Notes under the pieces: generated by a model
What the model saw: the letters and a program-made list of their open reading frames with translations, nothing else
Database searches by the model: none
Told to the model about the DNA's origin: nothing
Sequence record: PQ433349.1
DNA from: Escherichia phage vB_Ec-G1
Length of the DNA: 64,000 nt
Strand: one strand, 5' to 3'
Made by a program: the position numbers and the translations under genes
Part shown: positions 461-15,286 of the stretch, in pieces
Layout: each line of letters begins with the position of its first letter
Position numbering within the stretch: the first letter of the stretch is position 1

Positions 461-739
461 TTAAAATGGTTCGTTAGTCTCCATCATATATTCTGCTTCT
501 AGTTCTTCCATGTGCTTTCTAAATTGGAAAGCAATTTCTGCTACAGTTACATTTAAATCTTTTTCAAAAACTTCTGTAGAGCCTTCATAAAAACGAATAC
601 CGTCAATTAAAAGCCCTCCGTGGTAATCCCAATCACTTTCACGAGAAAGCGGGTTAGGCTCTTCATAATAGTAATCCACCTCCACGACTAAGGCTTTCCC
701 GTTACGAGTGGTGTATTCAAAATCAAAAGTGTTAATCAT
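461..739 (-). CDS. hypothetical protein (92 aa)
   Basis: Track ORF in operon orientation, tightly spaced with neighbours. Confidence 0.55.
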   Translation of the reverse strand: MINTFDFEYTTRNGKALVVEVDYYYEEPNPLSRESDWDYHGGLLIDGIRFYEGSTEVFEKDLNVTVAEIAFQFRKHMEELEAEYMMETNEPF

Positions 740-1683
740 TATAGCTCCTCAAATAAAAGTCTACGACGCTCATTCAACACATCAATGTGATAATGAGTCC
801 TGACATACTTAGCTAATGCTAATCCTTTCTCCATGCAAACATCGGGAGCACTTAATAAGTATTCCGTAATATCTTTCCACTCGGAAGGTGTTTCAGCAAA
901 GAATAACAGATCTTTAAACTCTTGTGTATGATAATTCTCACGAGGAGAACAGATCAAAGGTAAACCCTTAGCACCTGCCTCAAGAATTTTAAGATTGCTT
1001 TTTGCATTATTAAACACGTTATCAATCAATGGCGCAAGACTGATTTGATGACCATCGTAAGATTCCATGTAGTTGGCATATGGTCTTACACCTTCATAAA
1101 CACAAGTTGGTGCTACATTTTCCCTGATTACAGACCATTCACGACTACTTAAAACTTCAGAATCCCTACGAAAACCACATATTGTAAGATCTTTACCAAA
1201 ATCGGGCAAGATAGCCAAATCTTGTTTATGTGTTTCACTTCCAGCCCAGACTAATGGAGTTTTGGAGTAGCGATCACGGGTCAACACAAATTGACCTTCA
1301 TCGTAAGGAAGTCCATTAGGGATTATGTGCACATTATCATTGTATTGTGAAAGTTCAACTTGCAAGGCAGGTGTCGTAGTTGTAACAAGGTCACTGTGCT
1401 CTAAAAACCATTTTAAATGTTCACGAATACCTGATTCAAAAATACCTTCTAACATGTGTCCTTTTGGAATAACTAAAGAGTCATCCAAATCCATAACCAT
1501 TTTAAAGCCTAGGTTTTTAAGGGCTAAAAAGCCCTCTTTACCTTTTGTTGGCACCCCGTTAAAAACGAAAACGTTGTGTTTAGGTTGTGAAGAGAACTGC
1601 CTTGAGTAAGGCAGCACTACCCTATGGAAATCGCAGACACTATAATTGATTCCGTTACGATTGTCAAGAATTATTTGTCCCAT
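739..1683 (-). CDS. GT-B-fold glycosyltransferase-like protein, paralog 1
   Basis: 314 aa; C-terminal motif KSNLKILEAGAKGLPLICS resembles the GT-B (GT4-like) nucleotide-sugar binding region; paralog of the adjacent gene. Confidence 0.5.
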   Translation of the reverse strand: MGQIILDNRNGINYSVCDFHRVVLPYSRQFSSQPKHNVFVFNGVPTKGKEGFLALKNLGFKMVMDLDDSLVIPKGHMLEGIFESGIREHLKWFLEHSDLVTTTTPALQVELSQYNDNVHIIPNGLPYDEGQFVLTRDRYSKTPLVWAGSETHKQDLAILPDFGKDLTICGFRRDSEVLSSREWSVIRENVAPTCVYEGVRPYANYMESYDGHQISLAPLIDNVFNNAKSNLKILEAGAKGLPLICSPRENYHTQEFKDLLFFAETPSEWKDITEYLLSAPDVCMEKGLALAKYVRTHYHIDVLNERRRLLFEEL

Positions 1684-1690
1684 ACATCAC

Positions 1691-2638
1691 CTACAAACTT
1701 TCAATAACCTGGCGTCGCAATTCGTTTGCATCTGCCAGATTGTAGTGTGTTCGAACATGTTCAGCCAAGAACAAGCCACGATCTTCCCGATAGTTTGGAT
1801 TGCGAAGAAGCTTAACAATTTCGTAATGCCATTCTGCTTTATTCTCTGCGTAAGCAACAGCACGAGCATCTACAGGGTTAAAATAAGGTAACACCTTAGA
1901 ACAAACAATCGGAATACCTTTTGCCCCAGCTTCCAGGATTTTGAGATTACTTTTGCAATTATTAAAATCATTATCTACCAAAGGAGCTATAGCAATAGCA
2001 TGACTTTCGTAAACATTCATGTAATTATCTAAATCTTTTACAGCAGCTTTATATTTGGCATTTGGTAAATTTCTGCGAATCTTAATCCACTCTTGTCCCG
2101 TGATGCTCTGCGATGCTTCATATCCCGCAATAGTAAGAAGTTCATCATCGAAAGTATTAGAGACTAGTCGTAAATCGGGTTCGTGACTAGCACCGCCAGC
2201 CCATACAACAGGGGTACCGGATGAACGATCATTTGACAAAGTGAATTGTCCACTATCAAAAGGAAGTGCATTTCGGATCACAACAACATTCCTATTTAAG
2301 TGACGGATCTTATATGCCAAGTATTCCGTAGTCACAATAACCACATCAGCAAGCTTAACCATAGCCACAATAGCATGAGTGTTTGACTCGTATAAACTTG
2401 CCAAATAATGCTCTGGATTAAGTTGGTAAAAATCATCTAAGTCTACAACAATCTTAACACCTTGGCGTTTCAAAGATAAAACGTATTCTGCACCTTTAGA
2501 GTGGATACGGTTAAACACAACAACATCTTTCTTAGGTTGAATATTATTGTTGTTAAATGGTATAACAATACGATGATAGTCACAACCGCTGTGAGGTTTT
2601 GCATCAATTTTTAGTTTAGACCATTTTTTATTTGACAT
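1691..2638 (-). CDS. GT-B-fold glycosyltransferase-like protein, paralog 2
   Basis: 315 aa; shares CD(F/Y)HR, VDLDD and KSNLKILEAGAKG(L/I)P motifs with 739..1683 (tandem duplication). Confidence 0.5.
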   Translation of the reverse strand: MSNKKWSKLKIDAKPHSGCDYHRIVIPFNNNNIQPKKDVVVFNRIHSKGAEYVLSLKRQGVKIVVDLDDFYQLNPEHYLASLYESNTHAIVAMVKLADVVIVTTEYLAYKIRHLNRNVVVIRNALPFDSGQFTLSNDRSSGTPVVWAGGASHEPDLRLVSNTFDDELLTIAGYEASQSITGQEWIKIRRNLPNAKYKAAVKDLDNYMNVYESHAIAIAPLVDNDFNNCKSNLKILEAGAKGIPIVCSKVLPYFNPVDARAVAYAENKAEWHYEIVKLLRNPNYREDRGLFLAEHVRTHYNLADANELRRQVIESL

Positions 2639-3311
2639 GTGCTAGTGCCTCCTCATAAGAAAGTCGGATTTTCCCATTTTTAATATCCTCTAAAGATGCT
2701 TTGTATTCTTCCCAGTTAATACCAATAGCAGCTTCTTTCTCTTCTTTTGTCAGATTAGCAAAAGGCATAGGATTGTTTCCAAAAACATCGTCTGGGTGGA
2801 TATAAGCCATGATACGAAGTGGACAAGGTGTTGCCTGAATACCATGATTCAAACCAGCAGCTTTCAAACGGTGTCCCCATTCAGCATCTTCAAAACCATA
2901 ACCGTGAGTGTAAGGGCGGAAATAACCCATCTTCTCAACAACGGCACGAGAATACATTGCAAATTGACACATTGCAAGTTCCCAGAGAATAACTTCTCCT
3001 TTGCTTCCAACAACTTTATCTTTGAAATACTCCGGCATACCAAAGAAATCCCATCCTCCAGAAACAGCCTGATCTACAAAGTATGTTTCCCATCCTTCCA
3101 TGACTGGGTAGCAATCATCGTCAAAAATAAACCAATAATCATAACCTTCTTCATAAAACTGGTGCATAAGTTCATTCCTGGCATAAGCTACACCTTTACG
3201 ATCTGGATCGTTGAATACTCGAAAATCTGCACGTGGATCTGTTACAAGGTAGTCTTTAAGTGGACGGACGCCTACAGTGATAACACCCACTCCGATTTTA
3301 ATATTTTCCAT
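2628..3311 (-). CDS. putative GT-A-like glycosyltransferase (DxD-type)
   Basis: 227 aa; acidic FIFDDDCYP motif typical of DxD glycosyltransferases; sits in the glycosyltransferase cluster. Confidence 0.35.
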   Translation of the reverse strand: MENIKIGVGVITVGVRPLKDYLVTDPRADFRVFNDPDRKGVAYARNELMHQFYEEGYDYWFIFDDDCYPVMEGWETYFVDQAVSGGWDFFGMPEYFKDKVVGSKGEVILWELAMCQFAMYSRAVVEKMGYFRPYTHGYGFEDAEWGHRLKAAGLNHGIQATPCPLRIMAYIHPDDVFGNNPMPFANLTKEEKEAAIGINWEEYKASLEDIKNGKIRLSYEEALAHVK

Positions 3312-3319
3312 TATCTCTC

Positions 3320-3883
3320 CTAAATAGTTTTACTGTGATCGTGACAGTGTAATAAATGATGTATAGACCGTTGAGGATTTGTTTGACCTAATCTGTAAAT
3401 GTGAAACAGATACATTCCCCGCATCAATCCTAACCTCTTTCCTTTTTCATGTAAAGTGCGAGAGAAAATTAAGTCGAATTGGATAGATTTTTCTTCGAAA
3501 GGAATTTCATTCCACAACGATTTTCTAAAAAGCAAAAAGAAACCTGCCAGAGGTGTTCCGAAAGGAACTTCTTCAACACTCACTTTATGATATTCTCTTG
3601 CAATCTTAGCATATTCTATATGGTTTAGAATATCTGGATCATCGTTAATTTGGTTAGAGAAAAGCTGATAACCACTACCTAACCTGTTACAAGTTGCACC
3701 TATTACATCAAAAGGTGGGTTTGAAATAACAAGCTCTTCAAGCATAGATGGTTGATCAGGCAGGAGGAACATTGTATCGGTATCTCTTAAGCACACCCAA
3801 CTATCATCTGGAAGAACGGCAATAGCTTCATTGATAGCCTTGCCGATATTTCCTGTCAGATAGGGAGTAATATAATAAATCAT
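3320..3883 (-). CDS. putative GT-A-like glycosyltransferase
   Basis: 187 aa; N-terminal ITPY...AIAVLPDDSWVCLRDTDTMFL resembles the GT2 Rossmann region with DxD. Confidence 0.35.
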   Translation of the reverse strand: MIYYITPYLTGNIGKAINEAIAVLPDDSWVCLRDTDTMFLLPDQPSMLEELVISNPPFDVIGATCNRLGSGYQLFSNQINDDPDILNHIEYAKIAREYHKVSVEEVPFGTPLAGFFLLFRKSLWNEIPFEEKSIQFDLIFSRTLHEKGKRLGLMRGMYLFHIYRLGQTNPQRSIHHLLHCHDHSKTI

Positions 3884-4584: not shown

Positions 4585-5106
4585 TTAACTCCCCTTTGGT
4601 AGATAGAAACCATGCACTTTATCTCGATAAACAAGACGCATATCACGCTCCCAGTGTGTCCTTATATTCCGTTTCTTGAAGTATAGAGCACCTTTAGTAA
4701 CATCTAAAACAGACCGCAATTCAGGAAAATGTTTCTCTAAATAAAGTAAACGCTCCGCTATTGCTTTTGCTTCCTGCCACTTATCTTTCTCTGTTACGTT
4801 AAAAGTTTTCGCATATGAGAATTGCCCTTTCTGGAACAAGACTCCTCTGACTGTGTTAGGAAAGTAGGCATCATTTCTTCTATTGATTACCACATTCCCA
4901 ACGGCATTCATTCCTTTTTTACCCAGACCGCGACCTTCTGCGTAAATTGCACAAGCTAATAGAATTTTATCATTATATTGCTTTGTACATTTGTGAACTA
5001 CTTTAGCGGTTTTTACGTTTGCAGCTTCGGCTTTCGCCACAACAGGTGTAAATGTAAAAGCAGTTAAGGATAGTAACGCAACTGTTACAAAGTTTTTTAT
5101 CAGCAA
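4585..5106 (-). CDS. secreted cell-wall hydrolase (SleB/Hydrolase_2-like)
   Basis: 173 aa; N-terminal signal peptide; AIYAEGRG...GMNAVGNVVINRRN...GVLFQKGQFS resembles the cell wall hydrolase SleB family. Confidence 0.55.
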   Translation of the reverse strand: MLIKNFVTVALLSLTAFTFTPVVAKAEAANVKTAKVVHKCTKQYNDKILLACAIYAEGRGLGKKGMNAVGNVVINRRNDAYFPNTVRGVLFQKGQFSYAKTFNVTEKDKWQEAKAIAERLLYLEKHFPELRSVLDVTKGALYFKKRNIRTHWERDMRLVYRDKVHGFYLPKGS

Positions 5107-5167
5107 ATTTTGCCTCCTTTTTAAGTTAACGAATTTCTAGTATAACACGATAGAGGCTTTATTGCAA

Positions 5168-5187
5168 GAGGGGGATTTCTCCCCCTC
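5168..5187 (-). terminator. strong GC hairpin downstream of the TerD-like gene (possible terminator/attenuator)
   Basis: GAGGGGGA-ttt-TCCCCCTC perfect stem; flanking T-run is weak. Confidence 0.3.
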
Positions 5188-5205
5188 AAAATCATTTGTT
5201 AATTA

Positions 5206-5808
5206 TTATGGACATTCATACCATTCTTTTTTACCACCGAAGGCCATCACCACATCACAAATATCCAGACCAGCTTTGCCTACACCATATGCTTTCAGCT
5301 TCCATTCCCCATCTTCACGAACCAAGGAAGCCACGTGGCAGATTGTGTTGCCAGCTACTTCAGGAGCCAGGAAGTCAAAATCCAGAATTTCCACATTGCG
5401 CTCGGAGTCGAAGATTTTAAGCATACCTTCAGAAGCATGACCAAAACGTTTCAGACCTGTATCATCATCAATGGTCAGAACAAAGGCAATCTCTTGTGCA
5501 TCAGGGGAGATTTTAGCCAGAGTAATATCAATCTGCTCCATGCTGCCAGTTCCATCACGAACATCGTCACCAGCGAAGGTAGAACGTTCAGGATCAAACT
5601 TGTTAGCATAGCAAACCAGATGACGTGCAGACAGCATTTCAGGATTGCCAGCGGCATTGTGACGACAAACCAGTGCACTTACATCCAGATCCAGTTTAGA
5701 ATCAGATTTCCAAGAGAATTCCAGGCGCAGTTCTTTCAGAGCCGGAGCAACTTTCTTCAGGGAAATTTTTTCGCTAGAGCCTTTTTTCAGGGAAATTTTA
5801 TCAGTCAT
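5206..5808 (-). CDS. TerD-domain protein
   Basis: 200 aa; duplicated KISLKK N-terminal motif, DLD and GDDVRDGTGS motifs typical of TerD/TerZ family. Confidence 0.7.
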   Translation of the reverse strand: MTDKISLKKGSSEKISLKKVAPALKELRLEFSWKSDSKLDLDVSALVCRHNAAGNPEMLSARHLVCYANKFDPERSTFAGDDVRDGTGSMEQIDITLAKISPDAQEIAFVLTIDDDTGLKRFGHASEGMLKIFDSERNVEILDFDFLAPEVAGNTICHVASLVREDGEWKLKAYGVGKAGLDICDVVMAFGGKKEWYECP

Positions 5809-5823
5809 CTTTTGTCTCCTCTA

Positions 5824-6093
5824 TTATTTAAGTGTAATACCAGTTACAGTCAATTCTACTTCCAAAAGCTTAGATGTGTTTTGGATTGATACTAATTGTG
5901 CATGATGGTTTAGTTCTACAGCAGAATAATCATTTTCCCCATCGTCTACTTTTAAATAAACAATGATTTCACTAAGGTCTAAACCATTTTCGTCAAATGC
6001 ATTTTCATAGACGAAAGTATCTCCTACATCCAAATCTTTAATGGTAAGGCATCGTTTATTTACTTTTTGCTCATCAATTTCGAAGTTTAACAC
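5824..6093 (-). CDS. small hypothetical protein, paralog of 7115..7393
   Basis: 89 aa; shares DLDVG.TF and (L/V)TNITLK motifs with the ORF upstream of the vWA gene. Confidence 0.5.
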   Translation of the reverse strand: MLNFEIDEQKVNKRCLTIKDLDVGDTFVYENAFDENGLDLSEIIVYLKVDDGENDYSAVELNHHAQLVSIQNTSKLLEVELTVTGITLK

Positions 6094-6322
6094 TTCTTCC
6101 TCCTAATGTTATCTCCGGTTTGTATATACGAAGAATTATAGCGTTTTCATTTTCTTTGTCAACCCATTCTTCATAATCAGGCCATACATGAATCTCTACT
6201 CTACTTACAATATCTTCCATTCGCACAGTCCCAATGAAATACTCTTTGAGACTGCGCATAATGAAAGCTTCTCTCTCACGCCAATAATTTTCTATGACTT
6301 GAGAGGCAAGCTCGTCGATCAT
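6074..6322 (-). CDS. hypothetical protein (82 aa)
   Basis: Track ORF, operon orientation. Confidence 0.45.
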   Translation of the reverse strand: MIDELASQVIENYWREREAFIMRSLKEYFIGTVRMEDIVSRVEIHVWPDYEEWVDKENENAIILRIYKPEITLGGRSVKLRN

Positions 6323-7113
6323 TTTTTAGCACCTACTTTAACAACCCACTCTCCGAACTCTTCAGATAAGAGTTTGTCATAAAGCTCTGAATCTGTCAAG
6401 TCTAAATCTTTAATACCAATAAAACCAACATTATCATAAGCATTTGCCAGTTCTTTCAGGAAGCCAAACTTCTCATTACCAACGCCAACCATGAACCAAT
6501 AAATAGGTTTATTCTTATTCTCTTCGATAAGACGACGAACAGCACTAGGATCACCATTCTCACCATCCGTCTGGAAGAATACAACACCAGGGGTAACGTC
6601 AGCACCTGGTTCAGATACAGCTACAACTTTTTCACGCTCTACAGACACTGTTTCAGTTTTACCAAGCAGACGATTAAAGAAGCCTTTCTTTGGAGCCTCC
6701 TCTTGTACCACTTGTTTAGTGGTAATATATTTAGTAACAGTGCCAAAATACTCATCGTAGATATCCGCCATTACAGGGGCGTAATTTGTTCCACCTCCGA
6801 TACGAACATTACGCATACATTTACCAACATAGTCATCGTAAACATCTGCTGTTGCTGGAGTAAGCTCTTGGGAACTCGTATTGAAGGCCCACATATCAAT
6901 TTGTTGATTATCGTCGAACAGCATACCAAAAGGAAGCAGTTTACCTACAAAATCACTCACTACCCCACTAGAATATAGACCATGCATACTACCAGAAATA
7001 TCTAGAGCACATGCTACACGAAGAACAATCTTACCTTCATTCAGGTTCTTATTCTTTTTCAGAGAGAAAGCAAGGTTTTCTTGACGTTTTTTCAGGCTGA
7101 TTTTCTCGGACAT
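6319..7113 (-). CDS. von Willebrand factor A (vWA) domain protein, TerY-like
   Basis: 264 aa; MIDAS motif DISGSM plus downstream GGTNY and TDGENGD; N-terminus begins MSEKISLKK like the TerD gene. Confidence 0.6.
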   Translation of the reverse strand: MSEKISLKKRQENLAFSLKKNKNLNEGKIVLRVACALDISGSMHGLYSSGVVSDFVGKLLPFGMLFDDNQQIDMWAFNTSSQELTPATADVYDDYVGKCMRNVRIGGGTNYAPVMADIYDEYFGTVTKYITTKQVVQEEAPKKGFFNRLLGKTETVSVEREKVVAVSEPGADVTPGVVFFQTDGENGDPSAVRRLIEENKNKPIYWFMVGVGNEKFGFLKELANAYDNVGFIGIKDLDLTDSELYDKLLSEEFGEWVVKVGAKK

Positions 7114-7114
7114 A

Positions 7115-7393
7115 TTATTTCTCCTTCTTAAGTGTGATATTGGTAACTTCTAAATCTACTTCCACCATATTTGTATCTGGTGGGATGCAATGAGTATAGC
7201 CTCGTTGTGCTAGTGATCCATTAATACAGATCGCACTGTTTGTGGAATTTTTAATGAACACCAAGTTACGGTAGGTATCCAACCCTGCGTCTTCATAGGC
7301 ATCATAATACATGAATGTGGCCCCTACGTCAAGATCTTCGAAAGCAATAGGTAAATCCTGACTTTTTTCTTCTTGAATATTGAATCTAAACAC
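7115..7393 (-). CDS. small hypothetical protein, paralog of 5824..6093
   Basis: Track ORF trimmed to GTG preceded by GAGGAGG RBS; paralog alignment starts at this point. Confidence 0.45.
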   Translation of the reverse strand: MFRFNIQEEKSQDLPIAFEDLDVGATFMYYDAYEDAGLDTYRNLVFIKNSTNSAICINGSLAQRGYTHCIPPDTNMVEVDLEVTNITLKKEK

Positions 7394-7949
7394 GCATACC
7401 TCCTCTACCAATTTTGAAGCCCAAATCGTAAGCTTCCTTAGTGATCTTTTGTAACTCACTTATAGGAAGTGTTACAAGAGGATCATCTTCTTCAATTTCC
7501 ATCTTGTCATCTTCTGTTTCAATGAGAGTATTATGCACTTTGTGATAAGGGTTGTCAACACGTTTAAACTTATTCTTTTCTGTGCTGAAAAAACAGTCTG
7601 GATCTTCTTCACCATCACCCCAACCTTGGTTAGGATCTCCGTCAGATTGTTCTGTAGGGATTTCACCTGTAAAGTACTCTTCCAGCACCATAGCAATACC
7701 GTCCCTTGGATTTGAGGAATGCATTAAATCACAAACCTTACCCCAATCCATAGCCCATTCGAACCGTTCACGAATGCCATTTTCATCCTCCTTCCCAGAG
7801 AAAACACAACCATAACTATCATAGTTGCCATACATCTCTTCAATAACAACACCGTCCTTCAAAAGAAAGAGGTAGCAAGGTGATCCGTCGAAAGAAGTAG
7901 AAAGGGCAGCTTTGCCCGATTCTTTGCACAAAAAGCTAAAACAACCCAT
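7386..7949 (-). CDS. hypothetical acidic protein (187 aa)
   Basis: Track ORF, operon orientation. Confidence 0.5.
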   Translation of the reverse strand: MGCFSFLCKESGKAALSTSFDGSPCYLFLLKDGVVIEEMYGNYDSYGCVFSGKEDENGIRERFEWAMDWGKVCDLMHSSNPRDGIAMVLEEYFTGEIPTEQSDGDPNQGWGDGEEDPDCFFSTEKNKFKRVDNPYHKVHNTLIETEDDKMEIEEDDPLVTLPISELQKITKEAYDLGFKIGRGGMRV

Positions 7950-8347
7950 TACAAACCCTCCTTCAGATTATCAAGAGCTACAGTGGTTTCACAAAATTCT
8001 CCATAAGCTTTATGATGTTCCAGAAAAGCTTCGGGTCCACCCCAGTCATTATCTTGTGTATTCCAGCCATCAATAAAAGCATCTTCAATGATTGTGATCA
8101 GTTCCTGTCGAGTCAACGTAATGGTATCAGGTTTCTGCGTAGTTTCCACACGGAACCCTGGTTCTTCATAAAAACCTTTAGTTACAATGGATTCTAACTC
8201 TTCTGCATCACAGAGGAAGTAGCCACAAAGATAACACCAACCGTCATCATCTTTCATTACTTCATAAACTTCACCACTTGCTAACTTGGTGAAAAGAGTA
8301 GGGTCTGTTACTGTAAGTTTTAAAAGAATACCTGTTGGATTATACAT
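7949..8347 (-). CDS. hypothetical protein (132 aa)
   Basis: Track ORF, operon orientation. Confidence 0.5.
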   Translation of the reverse strand: MYNPTGILLKLTVTDPTLFTKLASGEVYEVMKDDDGWCYLCGYFLCDAEELESIVTKGFYEEPGFRVETTQKPDTITLTRQELITIIEDAFIDGWNTQDNDWGGPEAFLEHHKAYGEFCETTVALDNLKEGL

Positions 8348-8513
8348 CTTCTTCCTCCTCTAAAATATGGAACCCGTAATTACAATAATCCTGAAAGGTT
8401 TCGTGTGCAAGATCTTCTATATCCTCTTGAGACATATCATCTTCAATTTCGATATCCACAACCTCATTGCATCCACACCAAGCAGTTTCAATATTCACTC
8501 GTAATATTTTCAT
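8340..8513 (-). CDS. small acidic hypothetical protein (~57 aa)
   Basis: Below track cut-off; ATG overlaps upstream stop, GGAG RBS; fills an otherwise empty gap. Confidence 0.3.
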   Translation of the reverse strand: MKILRVNIETAWCGCNEVVDIEIEDDMSQEDIEDLAHETFQDYCNYGFHILEEEEDV

Positions 8514-8710
8514 TACTCCTCCTCCTCATTGAAGTCAATATCTGCAAGGAGTTCGAATTTACGGAAGTTACGACAACCTTCATAAATATAACAATCACGA
8601 CAAACTGCTAGAACACTTGGGGGATATATGCCTCCCATCGGTGCGAATCGTTTTTCGTCATCATAACGGACACCAATGTCTTCATCAATTATATAGATAC
8701 GGATTCTCAT
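8513..8710 (-). CDS. small hypothetical protein (65 aa)
   Basis: Track ORF, operon orientation. Confidence 0.4.
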   Translation of the reverse strand: MRIRIYIIDEDIGVRYDDEKRFAPMGGIYPPSVLAVCRDCYIYEGCRNFRKFELLADIDFNEEEE

Positions 8711-9819
8711 TTACCAAGCCCTCGTTTCACAGCAGCTACCATCCCGTCTTCCAGAGATTGAACTTCATTAATATAATCAACACGAGCAGCACGGGCTTCC
8801 GTATTGATGCGGTTAGTTTCTTCCAACATCTTAACCAAGTTTTCCTGATCGTGACGCAGAGTTTCAATATCCAACACTTGACGGTTAGCCAGTGCTGCTG
8901 CTTCGATCTGATTCTGTGTAGCAAGATCGCTACCCAGTTTAATTGCCAGGTTAAATTCATCAAGAACGTTATTCTGCGTCTCTGCTGCTTTCATTTGACG
9001 TAAGCTCTCGATATACATTGAGAAGTTAGCAGAGTAAGCAGGAATAACATTATTTACTATGTTACGCGCAGATCGCATTAAGCTTGCAGAAACTTTTTGC
9101 ATACCTTGTACACGCGGTCCCATTTGGACACACAGTAGGCGCAATGCTTTTAAATCTGCAATACGAATCTCCAGAAGATCCAAAGTATCTCGGATCACTT
9201 GTCGCTGTTCTACTGCATCTTCTGGAAGAGCAGCCAAAGCTTGTTCTTCTTTTTCATAGGTTGCTGTTAGAAGCTGCATATCTCGGTTCAAACTTGCAGC
9301 ATATTGTCCAATAGCTTGATGTAGCTTTTCAAGATATACCAAGGAATCTTCTTCTTTGCGAATATCCATTTGAAGGTTCTTTACCAACTCTTCAATACGG
9401 TTATTAACATTATCAAACTCCCCAAACAGGTCTTCTTTCATACCCATAACTTTTTTAATGAGTTTAGTAATACCCTTGCTTTGTTTAATAGAGTTTGGAT
9501 CAAGTTGTTTTGCCTGTTTAATCAAAGCTGTGAGTCGTTCACTCATCTGATCGCCTTGATTACTACGTTGATGTTTTAATACCTCGGCATTCAAGGAACG
9601 CAAGGTTGTTCCTGCCTCTGCCCCAATCTCTTCGATCTCTTGTCGGGTCATAGAAGGCAAAACTGGAACTTCTTGCGGTGCCGCTGGTGCATAAACAGGA
9701 CTGGCATCTAACACGCTTGGAGCGAATACAGATTTACTTGCATCTGTTGTTGCAGCAAATACGCTCATTTCAGGCTTCTTCTGACCACCAGTAACTGCTT
9801 TTAAAAATGGACTTGTCAT
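8707..9819 (-). CDS. TelA-like (toxic anion resistance / KlaB family) protein
   Basis: 370 aa, predominantly coiled-coil; length and periodicity resemble TelA family; adjacent to TerD, vWA and TerC genes. Confidence 0.5.
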   Translation of the reverse strand: MTSPFLKAVTGGQKKPEMSVFAATTDASKSVFAPSVLDASPVYAPAAPQEVPVLPSMTRQEIEEIGAEAGTTLRSLNAEVLKHQRSNQGDQMSERLTALIKQAKQLDPNSIKQSKGITKLIKKVMGMKEDLFGEFDNVNNRIEELVKNLQMDIRKEEDSLVYLEKLHQAIGQYAASLNRDMQLLTATYEKEEQALAALPEDAVEQRQVIRDTLDLLEIRIADLKALRLLCVQMGPRVQGMQKVSASLMRSARNIVNNVIPAYSANFSMYIESLRQMKAAETQNNVLDEFNLAIKLGSDLATQNQIEAAALANRQVLDIETLRHDQENLVKMLEETNRINTEARAARVDYINEVQSLEDGMVAAVKRGLGK

Positions 9820-10406
9820 TCTTCATTCTCCTCTTCTGCATCTCTTATATATGGTGAAACACCGTACTCTTTAGCTACTTTAACCCAATCGTCCCATTTA
9901 TACAACCATAATTTTCCTTCGGTCCCTTCTTTATCTGATTTCAACCACATATTAGGTTGCTTACCTGGGTACATGCGATTAGGTTTACGATTATAACCTC
10001 TAACACATCTTGTCGCAAACCTATCTACCAGAACAAGAACATATTTATATTCGTGGTTCAACGGCTCTTTGGAAGTGGCTTTAGGATTAGCCCCTAATTC
10101 TGCTGCCAGTTTTTGCCAATGAGCACCGTGCCTACTAAACTTACCCATACAACCATCAATAGCATGAGCAATTTCGTGCTTCATTGTATCCACGATCATA
10201 TCTCTTGTAGAGTTCTTATGCAAGTGCCAATTTACAACAACAATTTTATCTCGGTAGTTGCACCAACCGAAAGAGTTATTCACTTTGTTTCTAACACAAG
10301 CTTTATATCCTGCTTCACGTAACATGTTGTAGTAAACAGGAAAATCTTCTTTTATTTCCTGCATCACTTCCCACCACAAGAGTTGCAAGTCTCTCTCGGT
10401 ATACAT
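9816..10406 (-). CDS. SprT-like zinc metallopeptidase domain protein
   Basis: 196 aa; HEIAHAIDG (HExxH) motif with downstream His. Confidence 0.45.
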   Translation of the reverse strand: MYTERDLQLLWWEVMQEIKEDFPVYYNMLREAGYKACVRNKVNNSFGWCNYRDKIVVVNWHLHKNSTRDMIVDTMKHEIAHAIDGCMGKFSRHGAHWQKLAAELGANPKATSKEPLNHEYKYVLVLVDRFATRCVRGYNRKPNRMYPGKQPNMWLKSDKEGTEGKLWLYKWDDWVKVAKEYGVSPYIRDAEEENEE

Positions 10407-10409
10407 AAC

Positions 10410-11003
10410 TTACACCTTAAAAGTGAAATGCGTGGTCGTGGTTTCAAAATCAGGACCAGATAAACGTGCACTGAAATCTGAAATATTTGTAATTAAAAAG
10501 CTTTTATGCATACCTAACACAGCTACGCTTTCAATATCTTCTACTAACATTTCAATCATGTTAGAAACATGGCTGAACGTAGAGTTTTGTTTTTTGATGG
10601 TGTAGAAAGAAAGATTACCACCTGCTGTATAAGATACCTCTTCAAAATCTTTAATCGTATATTGTGTGCCATCAGTAAAGAAAATGGTAGCTTTATTAGT
10701 AGCACGTTTCTTGTTTTTTGGTCCTTTTTTACGTTTACTGCGAGTAGGCAAACCGTTTGGGAACACCATAGCTACAAATTCTTCAGCAGAAACCTCCTTA
10801 CCGAAATCATAACCATAAGAAACAGCGTCTATAAACTCGTCATCTTCATTTTTAAAATAATGGAAATAGGGCCAATTTGAGAGATTATCGAGCATCTTAT
10901 GCTCGTCCACAGCAGAGAATGTATCCCTCAAAGCGCGTGTGATTTGCAAAGCATTAGGCAACCTTTTAACACCTACGATGGAAGTACGAATAGAAATTGT
11001 CAT
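10410..11003 (-). CDS. hypothetical protein (197 aa)
   Basis: Track ORF, operon orientation. Confidence 0.5.
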   Translation of the reverse strand: MTISIRTSIVGVKRLPNALQITRALRDTFSAVDEHKMLDNLSNWPYFHYFKNEDDEFIDAVSYGYDFGKEVSAEEFVAMVFPNGLPTRSKRKKGPKNKKRATNKATIFFTDGTQYTIKDFEEVSYTAGGNLSFYTIKKQNSTFSHVSNMIEMLVEDIESVAVLGMHKSFLITNISDFSARLSGPDFETTTTHFTFKV

Positions 11004-11017
11004 TGTTTTTCTCCTTA

Positions 11018-11455
11018 TTAACGTCGCTTGCTACGAGATGAACTCTTTTTACTTAAAGGGCTATTGTAAGATTTACGAGTTGTATAGCTACTATTTGTTT
11101 TAAAAGTTTGTCTCGGCTTTTCATAAGTTTTTATCTCTTGTTTAGGCTTACCATAAAAATTAGTTTTCGGTTTAGGTGTATTATAATGCTTATTAATAAT
11201 CGTTCTGTTATCGTTATAATCCCCACTGTTACGATTACTACCACCACTCATCATATGCCCTAACAACATACCTGTAGCAAACTCACCAACACCGCTACTA
11301 CTAGAACCGCCACCATTGTTGATAATAGTTGTATCTCCGTCAGATCCTTGTTGAGCGTATTGTTGAGGAGGTTGTTGGTATTGTGCAGGATTTGTTTCAT
11401 CCTCACAAGCTGTTAAAAAGATACAACCAATTAAAATCAGGGCTAGTTTTTTCAT
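11018..11455 (-). CDS. putative lipoprotein with low-complexity Q/G/S-rich region
   Basis: Trimmed to MKKLALILIGCIFLTAC start with AGGAAAG RBS; lipobox-like LTAC after hydrophobic stretch. Confidence 0.5.
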   Translation of the reverse strand: MKKLALILIGCIFLTACEDETNPAQYQQPPQQYAQQGSDGDTTIINNGGGSSSSGVGEFATGMLLGHMMSGGSNRNSGDYNDNRTIINKHYNTPKPKTNFYGKPKQEIKTYEKPRQTFKTNSSYTTRKSYNSPLSKKSSSRSKRR

Positions 11456-11642
11456 ATTTGCTTTCCTCATTTTGACTATTAATACATCTGTGTTTGAAAT
11501 CTCCAGAGAAGCAATAAAGTTGCTCTCCATCTCGGTATAAACTCACTTTACTGCCGTTGATTACGCTTGTCAATACAAAAATTACAACAAACAACCCTAT
11601 TGCAAAACAAATATTTTCAAACACAATCAACAAGTATTTCAT
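11403..11642 (-). CDS. small membrane protein (79 aa)
   Basis: Hydrophobic N-terminus; ATGA start/stop coupling with upstream gene; overlaps lipoprotein start by about 50 nt. Confidence 0.35.
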   Translation of the reverse strand: MKYLLIVFENICFAIGLFVVIFVLTSVINGSKVSLYRDGEQLYCFSGDFKHRCINSQNEESKYEKTSPDFNWLYLFNSL

Positions 11643-11989
11643 TTTAAAAATACCTCATCATCAGTTTCATTATCCCAGAAGAACAAATCCCAACCATTCG
11701 GATCATTCCATTTGGCTGCTGGAGAAGTCCATATTTGTTCGATATCAATATTCAAAACTTCACCGTTTCGTTTTGAAACAGCTTTAGTTAATTCCCAACG
11801 AGATACAGGCTCTACTTCCCCTGAACCACTCCCACAACAAGCTACCACGTTAGGAGGCAAATTAATTGGATCTTTGGTCACGATCATAACGCTTACCCCA
11901 GGGTAAACTTTTGAAAGATAATCTAAAACGTAATCCACATCACCAGATAAATCCCAAACAAGTTCTTGAATTTCATCAAAATTATTCAT
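11639..11989 (-). CDS. hypothetical protein (116 aa)
   Basis: Track ORF; AGGAG RBS. Confidence 0.5.
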   Translation of the reverse strand: MNNFDEIQELVWDLSGDVDYVLDYLSKVYPGVSVMIVTKDPINLPPNVVACCGSGSGEVEPVSRWELTKAVSKRNGEVLNIDIEQIWTSPAAKWNDPNGWDLFFWDNETDDEVFLK

Positions 11990-12000
11990 AAGTCTCTCCT

Positions 12001-12024
12001 ATAAAATAGCCTCCCGAAGGAGGC
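12001..12024 (-). terminator. rho-independent terminator after TerC-like gene
   Basis: GCCTCC-cgaa-GGAGGC hairpin followed on the minus strand by a T-rich tract. Confidence 0.5.
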
Positions 12025-12031
12025 TCATCTA

Positions 12032-13006
12032 TTAAACAGCAGCTTCTTCTTTTTCAGGGAAGATAAAGCTTGCAATAACACCAAGAGCTAATGTGCCTAG
12101 AACAATCATCAGACTTACGTTAGGGGAAATATCATGCGGGAGGAATGACCACTTGGCATGAAGTGTTTCACCGAACGGGTGATACATAAGTTTAGCACCG
12201 ACAAATACCAGAACCACAGCAACAGCTTTCTCTAAGTGAACCAGATATTTCACAGCCACACTTAACACAAAGAAAAGTGCACGTAAACCAAGAACAGCCA
12301 TCAGCATTGCAGAATAAACTAGCAGAGGTTCTTGTGTCACACCGATCACAGCCGGAACTGAATCAAAAGAGAAGACAATATCTGTAAGCTCAATAACAAA
12401 CACACAAAGAAGAGCAGGAGTTGCATATTTAATACCATTCTTAATGGTGATGAACTTTTCACCATCCAGTGCATTGTGCACAGGCAGAACTTTACCTACT
12501 AAACGAACAGCCCAATGCTTAGAGTAATCAATATCCTCTTCTTCGTCACCACCTTTGATGATAGCCACGGCAGACCAAGCTACAATCAAACCGAACAACA
12601 CTTGGACCGACCAATGAAGGTTAAACAAAGCGGTCCCTGCTGCAACAAAAATACCTCGGAAGACAATGGCTCCTGCAATCCCCCAAAGTAAAATCTTATG
12701 TTGGAGATGTGTGCTCTTAATTCCAAAGCTTGCAAAAATTGCCATGAACACCATCAGGTTATCTACAGAAAGACTCTTTTCCAACACATAGCCACTTAGG
12801 AAAAGCGCGGCAAACTCTTTACCATGTTCTACCCAAATGAATGCGTAATATCCTAAAGCTAAAGCAATCCAAAAAACAGACCAAAGCAAAGCAGATTTAA
12901 TTCCAATTTCTTTATTCTCTTTATGACCAAAGAAATCAATACCAATAGACAATGCTAAAATACCAACTAAAACAACTACATCAATAATGGGGAAACCAAG
13001 TTGCAT
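12032..13006 (-). CDS. TerC-family integral membrane protein
   Basis: 324 aa; multiple hydrophobic helices; conserved LSVDNLMVF and acidic DGEK features typical of TerC family. Confidence 0.6.
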   Translation of the reverse strand: MQLGFPIIDVVVLVGILALSIGIDFFGHKENKEIGIKSALLWSVFWIALALGYYAFIWVEHGKEFAALFLSGYVLEKSLSVDNLMVFMAIFASFGIKSTHLQHKILLWGIAGAIVFRGIFVAAGTALFNLHWSVQVLFGLIVAWSAVAIIKGGDEEEDIDYSKHWAVRLVGKVLPVHNALDGEKFITIKNGIKYATPALLCVFVIELTDIVFSFDSVPAVIGVTQEPLLVYSAMLMAVLGLRALFFVLSVAVKYLVHLEKAVAVVLVFVGAKLMYHPFGETLHAKWSFLPHDISPNVSLMIVLGTLALGVIASFIFPEKEEAAV

Positions 13007-13087
13007 TATTTTCTCCTTTCTCTTTGCGGGGAACCACTCCCCGCCTCATGTGATACATCTTACTCTATTCTAAAACTTTGTCAACAC

Positions 13088-13309
13088 TTATTTTGAAGAA
13101 CTTGAGGAAAAGATCCCACGTAGTACAGCCATGATAAATGCCACACACACCACAGTCCAGAAGGTGACAGGAACAGTGATATCTGTGTGACCCATCATTT
13201 CAACAACGTAGTTATAAGCCAGCAGCAGAAGCCATGCTGGAATCATACTAATCAGAAAAGCAATAACAAACACAATAATCACTGCAAGAATACCTGCTAA
13301 AACGCCCAT
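13088..13309 (-). CDS. small membrane protein (73 aa)
   Basis: Two hydrophobic helices; operon orientation. Confidence 0.45.
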   Translation of the reverse strand: MGVLAGILAVIIVFVIAFLISMIPAWLLLLAYNYVVEMMGHTDITVPVTFWTVVCVAFIMAVLRGIFSSSSSK

Positions 13310-13322
13310 AATATTTCTCCTC

Positions 13323-13796
13323 TTAAAGTTTATAAATAGTCACATCGTGACCTGTTTTTACTAAAGTTTCTTCAATCATCACTTCAATGATAGCCCAATT
13401 ACCTCCTGCCAACCCTGCTCCAATCATAGGTAAGCCGATCTTACATTTTTGGTCACGGAGAAGCAAATCATTAGCCATAGCTATTAGTGCATCGTACAAG
13501 GCATCATAGTCCAACTGACGACCTTTAGCATTGTATCCGTAACGGTATTGCCCGTACAGATTATATACCAAAGGGTCTGATTGTTCGTCTGGCACCCCTA
13601 AACTAAAACAACCCAGTTTACTTTGATCACCAGCCATTGTGTCTAAGTCTGCTGCATATGCGTAAGGAAATGCTCGTTTGATTTGTGGGGCAATACCTGC
13701 CCCCATATTACACATACAGTTGCAACAATGAGCAATAACAGTTACTTCACCTGCTTTAGCGGCATCAATAAGATTACCTGTTTTCATTTTAAGCAT
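13323..13796 (-). CDS. Macro domain (ADP-ribose binding/processing) protein
   Basis: Track ORF 13323..13901 trimmed to internal ATG after upstream stop; VIAHCCNCMCNMGAGIA and IGLPMIGAGLAGG resemble Macro-domain glycine-rich motifs. Confidence 0.5.
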   Translation of the reverse strand: MLKMKTGNLIDAAKAGEVTVIAHCCNCMCNMGAGIAPQIKRAFPYAYAADLDTMAGDQSKLGCFSLGVPDEQSDPLVYNLYGQYRYGYNAKGRQLDYDALYDALIAMANDLLLRDQKCKIGLPMIGAGLAGGNWAIIEVMIEETLVKTGHDVTIYKL

Positions 13797-13809
13797 TTTT
13801 AGCCCCTTA

Positions 13810-14637
13810 TTACAGAATGTGCTGTTTTGTGTAACGATCCAAGAATTCAAAGTTTTCAGCATACTTTGAAATTCGGTTGTAACCTTCTCCCAAGCATCCA
13901 AAGAAAAGTTGCTCTACATAGTAGTGTGGCAATTGACTAAGAATGATTTTGAAGTCTTCATGATTTTGGCCCATAAGATATTTAATAGGACGAACAAGAC
14001 ACTGTGCATCACGTTCTTCATTAATCATTTTAACAAACGCTTCTGGTGTATTAATGTAGTTAAAATTCAGTTTAGCTTCGGTATCTGCTTGATTACCTTC
14101 ATATTTTGCAAAATACAGGAAGTAAACATCATTTTTAACTTGATTTTCATCAAGAATCTCAATCAGTTTGTCTTCATGCGTTCCAGTGATATTTACATCA
14201 TCAATGAATACAAGCTTCTTATCACCCCAGAATTCTTTGTTGCAGTAGAATGTATCCCCATCAATAAGTTTCTTACGACTAGCTTTATCCAAGAAACCAT
14301 AATCGTTGATATAGCTAACTTTACGATGAATAATGTCCAGTTCTGCTGAACGACCTTGATCATATTGTGATTGCAACATGTTAAAGTAATTAATAAAATG
14401 ATCTGTCATCATTGTTGCAGCATTATGCACATGGTTGTAAGGAGAAGGAATGATAACAAATTGTTCCCCAATATGTTTCATTGCCACTTGAGCAAAAAAC
14501 TGAAGTGCCAATTCTTTACCCATACGACGCGCGGCTTGGTTACTACCAAATTTCAATTTTGAATAATCTTGGATATCAAAAGTAGCAGTTTCCAGGTCAT
14601 CAAATTTATTTGCAAAAATTTGAGTTTGATTACGCAT
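13810..14637 (-). CDS. phosphoribosyltransferase (PRTase)-like protein
   Basis: 275 aa; LVFIDDVNITGTHE matches the PRTase PRPP-binding signature. Confidence 0.5.
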   Translation of the reverse strand: MRNQTQIFANKFDDLETATFDIQDYSKLKFGSNQAARRMGKELALQFFAQVAMKHIGEQFVIIPSPYNHVHNAATMMTDHFINYFNMLQSQYDQGRSAELDIIHRKVSYINDYGFLDKASRKKLIDGDTFYCNKEFWGDKKLVFIDDVNITGTHEDKLIEILDENQVKNDVYFLYFAKYEGNQADTEAKLNFNYINTPEAFVKMINEERDAQCLVRPIKYLMGQNHEDFKIILSQLPHYYVEQLFFGCLGEGYNRISKYAENFEFLDRYTKQHIL

Positions 14638-15286
14638 TTACAATTTCTCCTCTTTTAAGTTTCTCTAGTAAGTCGTTAGGGTTCTTAATATGACAGAAGT
14701 TAAATCCTAAGTCAACACATTTTCCATCATATTCTTCACTATCGCCTACGTGCAATACTTCGTGCCCTAACAGAGGGATCGGAGAATACGTGAGCGTGCG
14801 AGCAAAGAATCGCGGATCTGGTTTACAAAGTAAAGCTTCATCCGAGAAATGGGTGAACTCAAAACAATTCCAACTATCAAACTTACAAGCACGACGCAGG
14901 ATATCCCCTGATATAAAGTTGGTATTGCTCTTAATACTCAAATCATAACGTCCCGAAAGATACAGCAAGTACATCGGCAGATCCACGGCTACGTGTGGTG
15001 GAAACTTAAGGAACCACTGTTCACACTCGAAACGAAGCTTTGCAGACTTCCAAGGTGTTATCCCAAGTTCAGAACCAAGTCTTTCCCAGGCGTATGCTGC
15101 ACACTCGGCTTTGCCTTGAAGTGCTGCATTATCCAGTTCCTTTTTGATCTTCTTATAAGCTGCTCTTGCTTCCACTTCCGTAATATCTCCATATTTTGCG
15201 ATAGTCCAGGCTCGCATGTCTGCGTAATTGGAGTTTGCTGTGATCAGTGTGTTCCATACATCAAAAGAGATATGTTTAATAGTCAT
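14630..15286 (-). CDS. HAD-superfamily hydrolase-like protein
   Basis: 218 aa; N-terminal FDVWNTL (motif I-like) and HVGDSEEYD (motif IV-like). Confidence 0.5.
   Translation of the reverse strand: MTIKHISFDVWNTLITANSNYADMRAWTIAKYGDITEVEARAAYKKIKKELDNAALQGKAECAAYAWERLGSELGITPWKSAKLRFECEQWFLKFPPHVAVDLPMYLLYLSGRYDLSIKSNTNFISGDILRRACKFDSWNCFEFTHFSDEALLCKPDPRFFARTLTYSPIPLLGHEVLHVGDSEEYDGKCVDLGFNFCHIKNPNDLLEKLKRGEIVNA

Follow-up and report, generated by a model that had tools for sequence, protein, structure and literature searches.

Introduction

Gene clusters of the Ter type are widespread in bacteria, plasmids, and phages, and they have been associated with phage exclusion and with resistance to tellurite and colicins. 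Their characteristic genes are those of TerD, TerC, TelA, a TerF-type vWA protein, a phosphoribosyltransferase (PRTase), and a HAD enzyme. An informative case is the TerF protein of the IncHI2 plasmids, in which a TerD domain is fused to a TerF-type vWA module, an arrangement which indicates that TerD and this type of vWA protein work together. Published accounts place clusters of this kind throughout the bacteria and mention them also in phages (Iyer et al. 2021, PMC7824862; phiKp34 paper, PMC8386662), among them the jumbo phages (PMC7824862) and the Klebsiella phage phiKp34 (PMC8386662). Here, we analyze a stretch of 64,000 nucleotides from Escherichia phage vB_Ec-G1 (PQ433349.1), called the window in what follows, which contains a minus-strand block with the same gene set as the known Ter clusters. 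Within the TerD–vWA core of this block sit two small genes, A and B, that encode related acidic proteins with a predicted SH3-like barrel fold. Whereas the IncHI2 TerF is a single fused protein with neither a small insert nor a small neighbor, the phage has separate TerD and vWA proteins and a small gene before each of them.

Phage-borne Ter clusters were already known; the family of small genes, its strict placement, its paralog lineages, and the putative promoter-led units to which it belongs are mentioned in neither of the published descriptions (PMC7824862, PMC8386662), nor is any small SH3-like component. In our proposal, one phage lineage has the family as an accessory that is expressed together with its Ter core, and the most likely role of the protein is that of a small protein-binding adaptor or regulator that acts on the TerF-type vWA protein, on TerD, or on both. 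The probability that we assign to this reading is about one half.

Two Small Paralogous Genes

Gene A (5824–6093, minus strand) encodes 89 amino acids (aa) and precedes the gene of a TerD-domain protein (5206–5808, minus strand, 200 aa); gene B (7115–7393, minus strand) encodes 92 aa and precedes the gene of the TerF-type vWA protein (6319–7113, minus strand, 264 aa). Both begin with a GTG codon behind a strong Shine–Dalgarno sequence, AGGAGG for A and GAGGAGG for B. The program-called open reading frame (ORF) of B runs out to 7459; since the orthologs of B all start with M-F/L-x-F at the position equivalent to 7393, the latter start is the correct one. The two proteins are 34% identical over their full length (BLASTP, E = 2e-14), and the profile of phrog_11278 matches each from end to end (residues 1–89 of A, E = 7e-45; residues 1–92 of B, E = 4e-51). 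This PHROGs family carries no annotation, and its placement in the vWA–TerD block, its fold, and its paralog structure are worked out in the present analysis. Searches of Pfam and of the PDB sequences with the small proteins returned nothing. The orthologs diverge to 22–30% identity and nonetheless keep a length of 87–93 aa and a common pattern, M-x-x-F, L-x-x-G-x-T-F, G-L-D, Y-I-K, A-x-x-L-N, and a V-x-L-x-V-S-x-I-x-L-K tail. The ribosome-binding sites, the length-conserved orthologs, the ratios of nonsynonymous to synonymous divergence (dN/dS), and a confident structural model establish that A and B are real genes.

The original prediction of two paralogous small ORFs, one directly before the TerD gene and the other directly before the vWA gene, is borne out by these comparisons, with 15 nt between the stop codon of A and the ATG of TerD and 1 nt between the stop codon of B and the ATG of vWA. 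The TNITLK motif that the two proteins were said to share is present in B and reads TGITLK in A. It had further been proposed that a two-gene unit had been duplicated, which holds for the small gene and fails for its partner. The similarity of TerD and vWA is limited to an N-terminal hairpin, no TerD similarity is detected by Pfam in the N-terminus of vWA, and the regions upstream of A and of B are unrelated, the 82-aa ORF before A and the 187-aa ORF before B being without similarity. A segmental duplication of any larger unit is thus ruled out, and the duplication was limited to the small gene.

Two irregularities were seen in the orthologs of Escherichia phage EF1-1 (locus L001, PQ571289.1). 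Its copy of B is split across two reading frames (14119–14461), probably because of a frameshift or a sequencing error, and its copy of A is labeled as an RNA ligase, a name that nothing supports.

Gene Neighborhood and History

The family was represented by 12, and then by 18, clusters among 5.8 billion proteins and by about 13 full-length sequences among 1.84 billion representative proteins. It occurs in 126 of 50,697 GenBank phage records, as against 219 phage records for the vWA gene. In all 126 of these phages, and likewise in 13 diverged metagenomic clusters, the small gene adjoins the vWA gene, the TerD gene, or both, and neither the 1.84 billion representatives nor the clusters of the 5.8 billion proteins yielded a member outside the vWA–TerD block. 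The co-occurrence anticipated by the original prediction therefore holds in one direction: the small gene lies beside vWA and/or TerD in every locus examined, but the converse fails, many TerD/vWA pairs having no small gene.

The gene orders within the block, obtained by a profile scan of all the fetched loci (metagenomic and other relatives are given L numbers), are varied. The small gene precedes vWA, which is followed directly by TerD, in phi92, Klebsiella phage 05F01, L021, and L022. It lies between vWA and TerD in L006, L007, L009, L010, L023, and L026 and, to the extent covered by cut contigs, in L008 and L027, and two tandem copies occupy this position in L011 and L012. The order of the window, in which a small gene precedes vWA and a second one follows an ORF of about 80 aa and precedes TerD, is also that of L001, L003, L005, L018, and L020, and L017 differs from it in having two small genes before vWA. 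Thus, the number of copies per locus ranges from one to three, and the tandem duplications in the metagenomic relatives (L011, 1180–1725; L017, 5001–5552) are independent of one another. The genes that flank the block vary among loci through insertions of Band_7 genes and through differing upstream ORFs, while the small gene stays within the block, separated from its neighbors by anything from an overlap up to 35 nt.

An approximate neighbor-joining tree unites all the pre-vWA copies in a single clade, places the pre-TerD copies of Phapecoctavirus in a sister clade, and leaves the distant copies that lie between the two genes at the base. This clade pattern suggests that the ancestral position of the small gene was between vWA and TerD, and that a later duplication gave rise to the pre-vWA lineage. 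Both copies would then have been kept in Phapecoctavirus, and the phi92-like phages would have lost the pre-TerD copy and retained only the one before vWA.

Rates of Divergence

The small proteins are under purifying selection, with pairwise dN/dS values of 0.11–0.39. Compared with its orthologs in L018, L003, and L017, A is only 45–51% identical (dN 0.40–0.52), whereas in the same comparisons TerD has a dN of 0.05–0.06 and is 90–91% identical (L003, L018). The corresponding dN values are 0.11–0.20 for vWA and 0.18–0.40 for B. The comparison with phi92 breaks this pattern, B (dN 0.25) having changed there no faster than vWA (dN 0.28). Hence, within the genus the small proteins are constrained, yet they evolve far faster than their neighbors and vary in copy number. 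Such fast divergence beside a slowly changing TerD, together with the repeated duplication, would fit a variable adaptor, regulator, or specificity role better than that of a housekeeping chaperone.

Expression Signals

A perfect match to the sigma-70 consensus promoter, TTGACA-16-TATAAT (6135–6162, minus strand), lies 42 nt upstream of A, within the 82-aa ORF. In five diverged loci, the A-type gene is preceded at a distance of 39–42 nt by a site with all 12 hexamer positions unchanged, and in the same comparisons the synonymous sites of the 82-aa ORF are near saturation (dS 0.8–1.4). A second sigma-70-like site, TTGACA-17-CATAAT (7530–7558, minus strand; 11 of 12 positions), is found 137 nt upstream of B, within the 187-aa ORF and toward its 3′ end, and is kept at the same distance in phi92 (L002), L005, L017, and L020. 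In phages that have no A copy (phi92, FBKp34), a promoter-like site stands directly before TerD. These sites, which are consensus matches and not mapped transcription starts, define two putative promoter-led units, the one consisting of promoter, B, and vWA and the other of promoter, A, and TerD.

The tight packing of these units raises the question of whether the small ORFs are above all an expression device, leader cistrons that couple translation to vWA or TerD and whose protein products are themselves of little importance. The stop codon of B lies a single nucleotide before the ATG of vWA, and overlapping or nearly abutting stop–start pairs occur in other loci as well. Moreover, all the pre-vWA copies end in K-(K/E)-E-K, and the AAG-GAG codons of this tail (7115–7130, minus strand) double as the Shine–Dalgarno sequence of vWA, so that the end of the B protein and this ribosome-binding site constrain one another. 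It is, however, the amino-acid sequence that purifying selection has maintained (dN/dS 0.1–0.4), the hydrophobic core retains its pattern, and the model shows a folded domain with good confidence. In addition, TerD has a Shine–Dalgarno sequence of its own, 15–35 nt past the small gene, and phages without the small ORF retain both vWA and TerD. We consequently regard an expression device as an unlikely explanation of the family.

Predicted Fold

An AlphaFold2 model of the small protein was built from an alignment of 19 sequences (pLDDT 86, pTM 0.77), and the model that BFVD independently provides for the identical protein of phAPEC8 agrees with it (TM 0.91). The AlphaFold2 model has a low-confidence N-terminal segment and five strands, with one helix after strand 1. 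A Foldseek search of this model against the PDB gave nothing significant. The top fold neighbors include ribosomal protein L2, the KOW domains of EF-P/eIF5A, and the domains of DtxR-type repressors, and the matches in a library of viral folds are uncharacterized small phage proteins only. These matches and the negative profile comparisons suggest that the predicted fold is a small SH3-like barrel of a generic kind, which fits no family in particular. Conserved elements flank the barrel on both sides, an M-x-x-F segment at the N-terminus and an amphipathic V-S/T-x-I/V-x-L-K tail at the C-terminus.

Barrels of the SH3, KOW, and Tudor-like types frequently bind RNA or DNA, and the fold neighbors just listed would be in keeping with small proteins that regulate the expression of the Ter genes by binding nucleic acids. 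Two results make this a very improbable function: their sequences match no RNA- or DNA-binding family, and all 24 family members considered are acidic (pI 4.3–5.5, net charge −2 to −11), a property unfavorable to such binding. Other small β-barrels of the SH3-like kind act on protein partners: FeoA is the partner of FeoB, HspQ a specificity factor of Lon, and VapX an antitoxin. The likeness of our family to these three is an analogy only, with fold scores of generic-topology level and no sequence relationship, and the phage proteins differ from them by the extra helix after strand 1 and by the conserved N- and C-terminal extensions.

Certain look-alike motifs might suggest that the small proteins are degenerate fragments of the TerD domain, since DLDVG in the small proteins recalls LDLDVS in TerD and the ITLK tail recalls ISLKK. 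Alternatively, HMMER profile matches to giant repeat proteins of the He_PIG, HYR, and DUF11 types might suggest single Ig-like domains related to adhesin repeats. Both ideas appear hardly tenable. In profile–profile comparison, hhalign gave a probability of 0.1–0.2% for a relationship to TerD or vWA (0.1% for TerD, E = 0.5), which disposes of a truncated piece of either protein, and the adhesin matches proved to be sums of short, repeated matches of one strand motif (profile positions ~16–60) to unrelated Ig families. Furthermore, the model resembles a five-stranded SH3-like barrel and is not a sandwich.

The N-Terminal Hairpins of TerD and vWA

TerD matches PF02342 with E = 3e-28 (98.9 bits, gathering cut-off 25.3), and vWA matches PF10138 (vWA-TerF-like) with E = 1.6e-37 (130.1 bits, gathering cut-off 29.4) and has an intact DxSxS motif of the MIDAS site (DISGS, residues 38–42). 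The Ca-binding acidic motif of the TerD of the window is degenerate (GDDVRDGTGSMEQ, as against GDNRTGEGDGDDE in the Klebsiella TerD, 2KXT).

The two proteins start alike, TerD with MTDKISLKK and vWA with MSEKISLKK, and this common beginning had been taken to mark them as the respective partners of the two small proteins. Both do indeed have it, in TerD as an ISLKK...ISLKK hairpin and in vWA as a tandem ISLKK/FSLKK hairpin, but it is no mark of pairing. In TerD the motif corresponds to the canonical β1–β2 hairpin. The segment aligns with VSLSKGG-NVSLSK of the Klebsiella TerD 2KXT from residue 3, and the protein aligns with the two solved structures, 2KXT and the Streptomyces 3IBZ, from residue 5. 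The TerF-type vWA modules, for their part, open with a tandem h-S-L-x-K hairpin in every example examined, including those without a small gene: KLSLEK...KLSLEK in FBKp34, IDLEK...ISLAK in Brevundimonas phage Bambus, ISLKK...ISLQK in Acinetobacter phage ME3, LDLTK...LNLQK in Pseudomonas phage Pyxpy01, and ITLEK...IVLEK in a Caballeronia plasmid. The vWA module of the IncHI2 TerF, which follows immediately upon the TerD domain and a linker, opens with ISLEK...VSLAKK...VSLTK and so resembles the N-terminus of the phage vWA, again with no small gene present. As a tag specific to small-gene pairs the KISLKK start is therefore ruled out, and it is instead a family trait of TerD and the TerF-type vWA proteins.

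Functional Association or Common Descent

The main rival to an adaptor or regulatory role is that the linkage results from descent only, in which case A and B would be fast-evolving accessory “filler” proteins of the early phase, aimed at a target in the host or in a competitor that has nothing to do with TerD or vWA. We consider this possible but less likely than our own reading, and the observations that weigh against our own reading are largely those that speak for this rival. All the carriers of the family belong to one broad phage lineage with a conserved gene order, so that shared ancestry, and not function, may account for the adjacency. No member occurs in FBKp34, which belongs to the same subfamily, in Bambus, ME3, and Pyxpy01, or in the Caballeronia and IncHI2 plasmids, and the small ORFs that lie beside vWA or TerD in the four phages FBKp34, Pyxpy01, ME3, and Bambus give no match to the family profile. 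Ter modules elsewhere thus manage without the small gene, and therefore TerD and vWA do not need its product. The varying copy number and the occurrence of the same generic barrel in many uncharacterized small phage proteins are also what a filler would lead one to expect. In the Phapecoctavirus-like comparisons, the nonsynonymous change of A is ~8–10 times that of TerD and the change of B ~2–3.5 times that of vWA, and a rate gap of this size is unusual for an obligate interface. Finally, the charges leave one hint of a pairing, in that the N-terminal 22 residues of TerD and of vWA have a net charge of +4 to +7 in the loci with the acidic small proteins and the hairpins of four phages without them −2 to +2, but basic hairpins occur also where the small gene is missing, and this charge correlation comes from few independent lineages.

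Three features of the block, nonetheless, speak against descent alone. The small gene has moved or been duplicated repeatedly, to positions before vWA, between the two genes, and in tandem, and despite the gain and loss of flanking genes it has always remained inside the vWA–TerD block. Furthermore, it is packed closely upon TerD or vWA in these different arrangements. Lastly, the members of this genus have it as the leading cistron downstream of a perfect and conserved promoter-like site, which it shares with TerD.

The Remainder of the Ter Cluster

Many coliphages of the phAPEC8 type (Phapecoctavirus, Stephanstirmvirinae) show 99% identity to bases 5000–8000 of the window, and by its sequence the window is that of a phAPEC8-like Phapecoctavirus with a full Ter cluster. 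Over this same interval, 99%-identical genomes have been deposited as phages of Campylobacter, Acinetobacter, and Klebsiella, and a relative at greater distance, with its genes in the same order, as Pseudomonas phage PsgM04F; these host labels look doubtful.

Every gene in this part of the window is on the minus strand. The order of transcription is 187-aa ORF, B, vWA, 82-aa ORF, A, TerD, and a SleB-like endolysin. Upstream, in the same orientation, Pfam matches identify the rest of the phage Ter cluster (8707–15286, minus strand): TelA (9819–8707), a SprT-like protein (10406–9816), TerC (13006–12032), a Macro-domain protein (13901–13323), a ComF-like phosphoribosyltransferase (PRTase_3; 14637–13810), and a HAD hydrolase (15286–14630). 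The Ter-system neighborhood, with TerD, TerC, TelA, the TerF-type vWA protein, the phosphoribosyltransferase, and the HAD hydrolase, is thus complete at 5206–15286 on one strand. None of the PADLOC-DB models, which represent known anti-phage defense proteins, matched A, B, TerD, vWA, the 82-aa ORF, TelA, or TerC.

The 82-aa ORF between vWA and A (6074–6322, minus strand; phrog_22387, no Pfam match) is confined to genomes with both small paralogs, has 20 nt in common with the beginning of A, and is fast-evolving (dN/dS 0.23–0.43). The 187-aa ORF (7386–7949, minus strand; phrog_14928, without a Pfam match) shows good conservation (dN/dS 0.10–0.13), immediately precedes the pre-vWA small gene in the window, phi92, L005, L017, and L020, and may be a part of the same module. 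Within the Ter cluster, an internal start in the ORF at 11018–11530 (minus strand) yields MKKLALILIGCIFLTAC, a lipobox-like signal peptide that is followed by a Gly/Ser-rich low-complexity region; the product may be a phage lipoprotein. Downstream of the endolysin (739–3883, minus strand) are four consecutive glycosyltransferase-like genes, which carry that annotation in the relatives EF1-1 and phi92 and two of which are paralogs of 314–315 aa.

Implications for the Phage Ter Systems

An adaptor or regulatory role for the small proteins could be accomplished in the following manner. The family would be an add-on to the phage-borne Ter module of the Stephanstirmvirinae-type myophages, and its members, produced along with TerD and the TerF-type vWA protein, would bind one or both of these as an adaptor or regulatory subunit. 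The plausible points of contact are the Lys-rich N-terminal hairpins of TerD and vWA or, alternatively, the MIDAS site of vWA. Such binding could tune the assembly or the activity of a membrane-associated TerD–vWA–TelA–TerC complex in the course of the infection. A more specific version, which we offer as a speculation with a slim chance of being right, is that these acidic proteins serve the phage Ter complex as quickly diversifying subunits, for regulation or specificity, that dock by strand addition, through the M-x-x-F segment and the I-T-L-K tail, on the Lys-rich hairpin of TerD or vWA and gate the sub-membrane assembly, for example by keeping it inactive until a superinfection provides the trigger. 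If this were true, it would provide the first defined protein–protein handle on the switching of any Ter system.

For the Ter systems as a whole, the small protein offers an inexpensive experimental entry point, being some 90 residues in length, soluble-looking, and easily deleted or co-expressed. Should it bind neither TerD nor vWA, it would be merely a lineage-specific gene with a conserved placement; should it bind either of them, a functional surface of TerD or vWA would thereby be marked out.

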